A stretch of 56,122 bases of DNA, filler included, from Sphacelaria rigidula (lineage: Eukaryota), in the NCBI GenBank assembly GCA_964200075.2. It is 6 parts of 6 records of this genome, joined end to end, with 100 filler letters (N's around TTAATTAATTAA, not from the genome) between each part and the next. Parts side by side here need not be neighbours in the genome. Positions count along the whole stretch, not along the records: positions 28,116 to 37,385 come from CAXNAA020008870.1; 5 more parts are not named here. The stretch is one strand, 5' to 3'. The position numbers and the translations under genes were made by a program. Of this stretch, positions 32,166 to 32,732 are shown piece by piece. The stretch's first letter is position 1; each line of letters opens with the position of its first letter. The notes beneath the pieces are model-generated. The model was not told where the DNA came from. It ran no database searches and saw nothing but the letters and a program-made list of their open reading frames with translations.

Positions 32166-32732
32166 GAGTGGTGGACAGGGCGGCATGGATGTCAGTTGTA
32201 GCCCAGGCACACAAGGTGATGCTAGGTCACGAATGTGGCAGATTGGTGATGTTGACGTACACAGGTCGTACGTCGTTCACAGGTAAGCACAACAACATAC
32301 CCGCGACCGTATCAGACCTGTTTTACAATCGTTACCAAGTACTTTTGTTCGGCCGGTGTAGGTGGCATCCTTCATGACATGATGGAGGTCGTAAACACAC
32401 CAGTGGAGCACAGGGAAGAGGCCCAGATAGGATAGGTAGGTCAGGCCGTTTCAGGTTTGTTGGGCTGGTGTATGTCCTTGATCGACACGCTCCACTGGTG
32501 TGTTTACGACCTCCATCATATCACGAAGGATGCCACCTACACCGACCGAACAAAAACACTTGATAACGATTGTAGAACAGGTCTGATACGGTCGCGGGTA
32601 TATTGTTGTGCTCACCTGTGAACGACATGGGGCCTGTGTACGTCAACACCACCGATCTGCCACATTCGTGACCTAGCATCATCTTGTGTCCCTGGACTCA
32701 AGCTGACCTCCACGCCGCCCTGTCCACCACTC
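32166..32732 (-). ncRNA. Long intronic hairpin, candidate miRNA/hairpin-siRNA precursor
   Basis: Arms 32166-32409 and 32489-32732 (244 nt each, no indels, 23 mismatches by manual count), 79-nt loop. The inverted repeat is certain; RNA function is inferred. Confidence 0.55.

Follow-up and report, generated by a model that had tools for sequence, protein, structure and literature searches.

Known hairpin systems and the present locus

siRNAs are commonly generated from long inverted repeats that are transcribed. In plants, young MIRNA genes are said, after work of Allen and colleagues in 2004, to originate by inverted duplication, with arms that are copies of the future target gene. In Drosophila, the hpRNA endo-siRNA loci reportedly described in 2008 by Czech and colleagues and by Okamura and colleagues produce abundant 21-nt siRNAs and have identified target genes. 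Inverted duplications can also form by fold-back or template switching, which are replication-based rearrangements.

In brown algae, 75% of the miRNAs are genic, most of these are intronic, and 90-94% lie on the strand of the host gene, according to the passages of PMC4513859 and PMC5381526 that deal with genomic location. The mean foldback lengths given in the two papers are 170 nt for Ectocarpus and 183 nt for Saccharina japonica, and their authors favour an origin of these miRNAs in genomic hairpins over one in transposons or gene fragments. Candidates for Dicer, Argonaute and RdRP are reported from Ectocarpus in PMC4513859. The annotation criteria set out in PMC5381526 comprise reads for both miRNA and miRNA* (at least 4 for the miRNA), 3' overhangs of 2 nt and a 5' end that is precise in at least 66% of reads, and extended hairpins giving several small-RNA species were excluded from the brown-algal miRNA sets described there.

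The locus described here is a 573-nt hairpin in an intron of a YGGT gene of Sphacelaria rigidula. Like the intronic miRNA loci of Ectocarpus sp. and Saccharina japonica, as these are characterised in the passages cited, it is an intronic part of a protein-coding gene, can fold on the host strand and has a long foldback; like them, it resembles neither transposons nor coding genes and, so far as can be judged, is restricted to its lineage. It differs from them in its length of 573 nt and in a nearly perfect stem of 247 bp, where the published loci have a short imperfect duplex. With plant proto-miRNAs it shares the inverted duplication and the long, nearly perfect foldback, for which heterogeneous dicing would be expected at first; unlike them, it has no source or target match in the window or in the protein search, and it is intronic instead of forming an independent transcription unit. 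The Drosophila hpRNA loci resemble it as fast-evolving, lineage-specific and long inverted repeats, presumably transcribed in its case as in theirs, with stems of hundreds of bp; they are distinguished by 21-nt siRNAs and known targets, where the present hairpin is a candidate. The reading that we favour, and consider probable, is a young, neutrally evolving, single-copy local inverted duplication in a repeat-rich YGGT intron, which would be transcribed in the host pre-mRNA and is a plausible Dicer substrate.

Organization of the window

The window, i.e. the whole stretch of DNA analysed (56,122 nucleotides), is interrupted by spacers of the form N44-TTAATTAATTAA-N44 at 9273-9372, 18645-18744, 28016-28115, 37386-37485 and 46755-46854. 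Its successive pieces measure 9272, 9271, 9270 and 9269 nt and look like unplaced, size-sorted contigs strung together; pieces that adjoin here need not do so in the genome. Two gaps of 10 N were also seen, at 12773-12782 and 51879-51888. The piece that concerns us is the following.

28116-37385, no strand: assembly piece of 9270 nt holding the hairpin, bounded by spacers; the sole stretch of the window shown to be physically linked to the hairpin

Several features were observed in the window besides the hairpin. On another piece, 41423-43956 on the minus strand matches RVT_1 (2.4e-22), RT-RNase H (9.3e-21) and an integrase zinc-binding domain (1e-10), and judging from these domains it is a remnant of an LTR-retrotransposon pol region. 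A dispersed repeat of about 67 nt, with copies 80-94% alike and in both orientations, occurs on several pieces (59-125, 502-568, 4399-4464, 5393-5512, 28217-28281 and 55977-56027), one copy being on the hairpin's own piece. A G-rich tract (10189-10229) and a run of about 45 C (12689-12737) lie 2.5 kb apart, and the C run adjoins a 10-N gap.

The host gene and its intron

Nine public runs from three studies contain part of 30400-34600, and the contigs of four of them (X1, X3, X4 and X5) were compared with the window. A spliced contig of X5, from which this run is likely to be an RNA run, joins position 30607 to 34096 at a depth of 669 and skips 3488 nt. The ends of the skipped segment read CT..AC on the plus strand, that is, GT..AG on the minus strand. 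The nearest relative, the full-length protein P0001, aligns as far as ...WVPQ at 34096 and resumes with LQG... at 30607, and the depth of X5 in the YGGT exon bins is 592 (bin 30541-30681) and 527. X5 shows both expression of the host gene and splicing of the intron 30608-34095, which confirms the minus-strand gene model of the first-pass annotation. The gene and intron are delimited as follows.

34096-34263, minus strand: upstream YGGT exon, 86% identical to P0001 over 58 aa and with a weak Pfam YGGT match; its 5' limit, taken from the X5 contig, is approximate
30608-34095, minus strand: YGGT host intron, 3488 nt, GT..AG, from the X5 spliced contig and the alignment of P0001
30536-30607, minus strand: downstream YGGT exon, 23/27 residues identical to P0001, supported by X5 depth and a weak Pfam YGGT match; its 3' limit, the end of the P0001 alignment, is approximate

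The domain PF02325 is present in all 18 of the relatives listed, and in the Atlas P0001 comes closest to a eukaryotic YGGT cluster in which diatoms are the commonest phylum. A search of the metagenome collection for relatives of P0001 returned 282 pattern matches, none of which was confirmed.

Much of the intron is occupied by repeats whose summed contig depth reaches 10^4-10^6 in X1, X3 and X4.

30823-31809, no strand: very high-copy dispersed repeat, limits to the nearest depth bin
32938-33219 and 33502-33924, no strand: two further very high-copy repeats of the YGGT intron

Within the first of these repeats (30823-31809) is a 195-aa frame, 31199-31786 on the minus strand, for which no Pfam match was found. 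The low-depth intron contigs of X5 reach 32170 and restart at 32772; none lies on the hairpin, and low-depth assembly breaks at inverted repeats.

Structure of the hairpin

An inverted-repeat search found a single strong inverted repeat at 32163-32409 / 32489-32735, with arms of 247 nt that are 90% complementary and 79 nt apart. In the sense pre-mRNA, which is read from the minus strand, the right arm of the map comes first.

32163-32409, minus strand: left arm on the plus-strand map, the 3' arm in the sense pre-mRNA (repeat search, pair count, and flank-joined contigs in X1, X3 and X4)
32410-32488, minus strand: loop or spacer of 79 nt (repeat search, and a separate 139-nt contig, 32380-32518, in X1, X3 and X4)
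32489-32735, minus strand: right arm on the plus-strand map, the 5' arm in the sense pre-mRNA (repeat search, pair count, and flank-joined contigs in X1, X3 and X4)

Pair by pair, the 247 positions of the arms contain 24 mismatches and no indel. Twelve of the mismatches are G.U pairs on the minus strand (A.C on the plus strand), seven are G.U pairs on the plus strand and five are transversions, so the stem has 223 Watson-Crick pairs, to which 12 G.U pairs are added in the sense RNA. Of the 24 mismatches, the outer half of the stem has 16 and the inner half 8 (p 0.09), all five transversions fall within the outer 106 nt of the arms, and the inner 139 bp in the sense RNA contains nine G.U pairs and one true mismatch. 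These counts bear out the earlier description of an indel-free hairpin of 244 bp with a 79-nt loop, except that the arms extend 3 nt further on each side. The 23 mismatches reported before, split 12/6/5, are reproduced when the outermost mismatch pair (32165/32733) is left out of the 247-nt count, and a recount again assigned nine of the ten mismatches closest to the loop to minus-strand G.U.

Folding of both strands, a check that had been proposed with the first description, gave -473.5 kcal/mol for the minus-strand RNA of 32150-32750 (z -33 against 20 shuffles with a mean of about -196) and -459.0 kcal/mol for the plus-strand RNA (z -37 against 20 shuffles with a mean of about -202). The minus-strand fold is thus more stable by 14.5 kcal/mol.

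A second long hairpin was observed on a different piece of the window, at 27181-27341 / 27466-27626, with 161-nt arms that are about 80-82% complementary and a loop of 124 nt. No other copy of it was found in the window, and it may represent the type of locus seen in the YGGT intron at a greater age.

Tests for selection on the duplex

The G.U bias had been taken in the first-pass annotation as the mark of a selected RNA duplex. A small-RNA gene of this sort, either a hairpin-siRNA locus or a nascent miRNA, would keep its sense duplex for the sake of a target controlled by its small RNAs. The bias runs in the direction that this predicts, both in the overall split of 12 to 7 and in the nine of ten loop-proximal mismatches, and the minus-strand fold is favoured by the energy difference given above. 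The lack of indels in 247 pairs and the position of the hairpin within an intron and in the orientation of the host gene, which it shares with 90-94% of the genic brown-algal miRNAs in PMC5381526, also speak for a selected gene. We nevertheless consider such a gene rather unlikely, on the following grounds.

The split of 12 versus 7 has a two-sided binomial p of 0.36, and that of 12 versus 6 a p of 0.24. The loop-proximal run has a nominal p of 0.02, which refers to a stretch chosen after seeing the data; in a corrected test that admitted any stretch of at least 5 transitions of either type, the 9/10 run was equalled or exceeded in 15% of random label orders and in 16% of orders obtained by shuffling the observed labels. 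The hairpin as such lies far outside what chance would produce; the unequal division of its mismatches between the strands does not.

An excess of C>T and A>G changes on the non-template strand, a transcription-linked asymmetry, would yield an excess of minus-strand G.U pairs without selection. The G+T fraction of the sense strand of the intron is 0.503 and gives no sign of such an asymmetry, although this is a weak test in an intron that consists mostly of repeat insertions. An explanation by mutational bias is not needed, since the G.U bias is not significant.

Comparison with X3 and X4 gave 12 substitutions in 988 arm positions (1.21%) versus 53 in 4957 elsewhere in 30400-34600 (1.07%; Fisher p 0.74), the non-arm set including exons, some repeat edges and one unplaced difference per run that was counted as non-arm. 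The stem changes as fast as its surroundings and therefore behaves as neutral sequence. The contigs of the two runs differ from the window at 10 arm substitution sites, and 7 of the 10 changes break a Watson-Crick pair. Four of these, all transversions, abolish pairing on either strand (32218, 32230, 32615 and 32705), two produce a minus-strand G.U pair (32231 and 32310) and one a plus-strand G.U pair (32565). The other three variants (32244, 32296 and 32702) restore a perfect pair; the corresponding mismatches of the window must be young, since they are polymorphic to this day. A compensatory change in the opposite arm accompanies none of the 10 arm variants, the six polymorphic arm transitions split 3:3 between minus-strand and plus-strand G.U, and X4 has in addition a 3-nt deletion at 32168, within the left arm.

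Two observations sit less easily with drift. The ratio of indels to substitutions is 5:40 in the X4 pieces and 5:28 in the X3 pieces, from which 3.0-4.3 indels would be expected per 24 substitutions and the probability of none would be 0.05-0.014 as a rough neutral expectation; no indel was observed between the arms. Homopolymer runs of at least 4 number 2 per 247 nt of arm, versus 19 in the 661-nt intron stretch that holds most of the indels. The zero count is somewhat unexpected under drift, mildly so, and is softened by the scarcity of homopolymers and by the arm deletion in X4. The denser mismatches in the outer half of the stem are not predicted by plain drift. In a sample this small, weak constraint or arm-to-arm conversion near the loop is conceivable.

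In the comparisons made here, none of the signs of purifying selection was found, whether reduced change in the stem, compensatory change or a significant excess of G.U pairs on the transcribed strand, and the selected RNA duplex is not supported. Against a selected small-RNA gene stands also that neither a source nor a target was found in the window search or the protein search, and that a foldback of 573 nt compares with means of 170-183 nt in published sets from which, in the account of PMC5381526, extended hairpins were left out. A related possibility is a nascent small-RNA gene that would be diced into 21-nt sense-strand siRNAs, with weak selection or biased repair keeping the loop-proximal 139 bp, where one is counted, without true mismatches. 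We regard it as unlikely. The tests agree with our preferred reading, a duplication whose arms evolve neutrally.

Copy number and integrity of the hairpin

In X1, X3 and X4, which are three samples from two studies, the left arm is in a contig that is continuous with the left flank (about 31762-32406), and the right arm is in a separate contig that extends into flanking sequence on the right, from about 32492 to 32935-32980. The depths of the two arm contigs are 73/68 in X1, 16/16 in X3 and 14/26 in X4, in line with nearby single-copy sequence, which in X1 has a depth of 65-80. The hairpin is single-copy at a likeness of at least 90% in these three runs, and no second copy was found in the 56-kb window. 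The breaks between arm, loop and arm contigs are as expected, because an assembly with 31-letter words here meets an inverted repeat whose inner 30 nt are perfectly paired; for the same reason the orientation of the loop is not readable with such words.

The loop contig (32380-32518) was observed to be shallower than the arms in all three runs: 29.4 versus 73.1/68.5 in X1, 12.8 versus 15.9/15.6 in X3 and 9.6 versus 13.6/26.1 in X4. Poor read cover at the centre of the palindrome, or a second haplotype, are possible causes.

The copy number bears on whether the hairpin could be a transposon, either of the foldback or MITE type or composed of two old copies inserted head to head, with relatives that have drifted below 90% likeness. 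Foldback elements take this form, in which long terminal inverted repeats enclose a short loop, and the hairpin resembles them also in its setting, a transposon-rich intron with very high-copy repeats on both sides. It is unlike them in being single-copy at a likeness of at least 90% in X1, X3 and X4, in having no family members in the window and in lacking a TSD: over 17 x 17 (289) combinations of boundary offsets, the longest flanking direct repeat is 3 nt, so that the earlier remark that no TSD was obvious holds. No contig with an empty site was present among the contig joints listed, and no transposase-like or other protein match was obtained. A transposon origin is therefore, in our judgement, quite improbable.

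The make-up of the window from short unplaced contigs strung together, and hence a perhaps modest assembly quality, might bring to mind a chimeric fold-back read or a similar artefact of assembly. This is improbable in the extreme, because the arms differ at 24 sites and because three samples of two studies each yield, for either arm, a separate contig with its own unique flank, and show strain-specific variants. The data on copy number and termini are thus those of the single-copy local duplication that we prefer.

Searches for a source or a known RNA

A 147-aa frame spanning the junction of left flank and left arm (31934-32377, plus strand) gave 35 candidates in the protein search, which covered protein lengths of 80-258 aa; none of them reached E<=0.01. 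Pfam had no match for any of four frames in the arms and the left flank, and Rfam had none at E<=1 for the region 31800-33100. In the metagenome collection, a 29-nt stretch of the inner arm had no exact match. A 20-nt stretch of the arm, searched in four spellings, did not occur in the S. japonica miRNA supplementary file of PMC5381526, a file that possibly covers another organism and from whose sets extended hairpins are excluded.

Local alignments of the arms and loop with both flanks, which would reveal a partial third copy, returned one finding, an exact 14-nt direct repeat between 32038-32051, which is 125 nt upstream, and 32164-32177, the outermost part of the left arm. Its score was reached by 1 of 300 shuffles, in a set of 8 comparisons. 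The match is probably due to chance; it could be a microhomology at the breakpoint.

Probable origin and age of the duplication

The earlier proposal that the hairpin was formed by inverted duplication fits the single-copy depth at a likeness of at least 90%, the lack of a further copy in the window and of a TSD at the boundaries examined, and the negative protein, Pfam and Rfam searches. Its birth would most likely have been a single step, in which a replication template switch or a fold-back repair event produced a reversed copy of about 247 nt on the far side of a 79-nt spacer. The hairpin resembles fold-back and template-switch duplications in its single-copy arm-spacer-arm layout, in the lack of a TSD and in arms that would have been free of indels at birth; the mechanism itself is a proposal. 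Both arms would then have gathered substitutions at the neutral rate of the intron.

The arms have diverged by 9.7% (K2P 0.106), versus about 1% between strains. The duplication would accordingly be young without being brand new, with about ten times the age of the differences among the strains sampled, if arm divergence is read as age.

Small-RNA potential

As the hairpin sits in a transcribed and spliced intron, its stem is expected in the sense pre-mRNA, and the pre-mRNA or the excised intron would carry a nearly perfect double-stranded stem of 247 bp. With Dicer and Argonaute, such a stem could plausibly be processed into heterogeneous hairpin siRNAs, as incidental dicing.

In structure, the hairpin corresponds to an hpRNA locus, being a long, near-perfect inverted repeat that can fold as one RNA (-473.5 kcal/mol, z -33); such loci are further defined by transcription as a single strand through both arms and by 20-24-nt small RNAs that come from both arms on one strand only. 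Its 247-bp stem and 79-nt loop exceed the at least 15 paired nt of the miRNA and at least 8-nt terminal loop that the brown-algal definition specifies, which is trivial for a stem of this size. By the size limits in the same account, 573 nt with a stem of 247 bp, about three times the published means, places it among the extended hairpins and outside the miRNAs. The brown-algal criteria, as formulated in PMC5381526, would reject it as a miRNA and admit it, at most, as a source of the siRNA type. The hairpin thus seems to be raw material for small RNAs, a candidate precursor rather than an established small-RNA gene.

Significance of the hairpin

As it stands, the hairpin is an ordinary neutral rearrangement, and the argument for selection fails statistically. 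Were it a nascent small-RNA gene after all, it would document the inverted-duplication route in an algal lineage, for which the published brown-algal work, in its passages on miRNA origin, found evidence only of pre-existing genomic hairpins. In that work (PMC4513859, PMC5381526), new loci are derived mostly from intronic genomic hairpins, and the passages concerned describe no example of the earliest stage. The hairpin in the YGGT intron would represent this putative 'genomic hairpin' stage, from which the intronic miRNAs of brown algae are thought to arise, and it is a clean and datable example, being single-copy, polymorphic among strains and 9.7% diverged between its arms.
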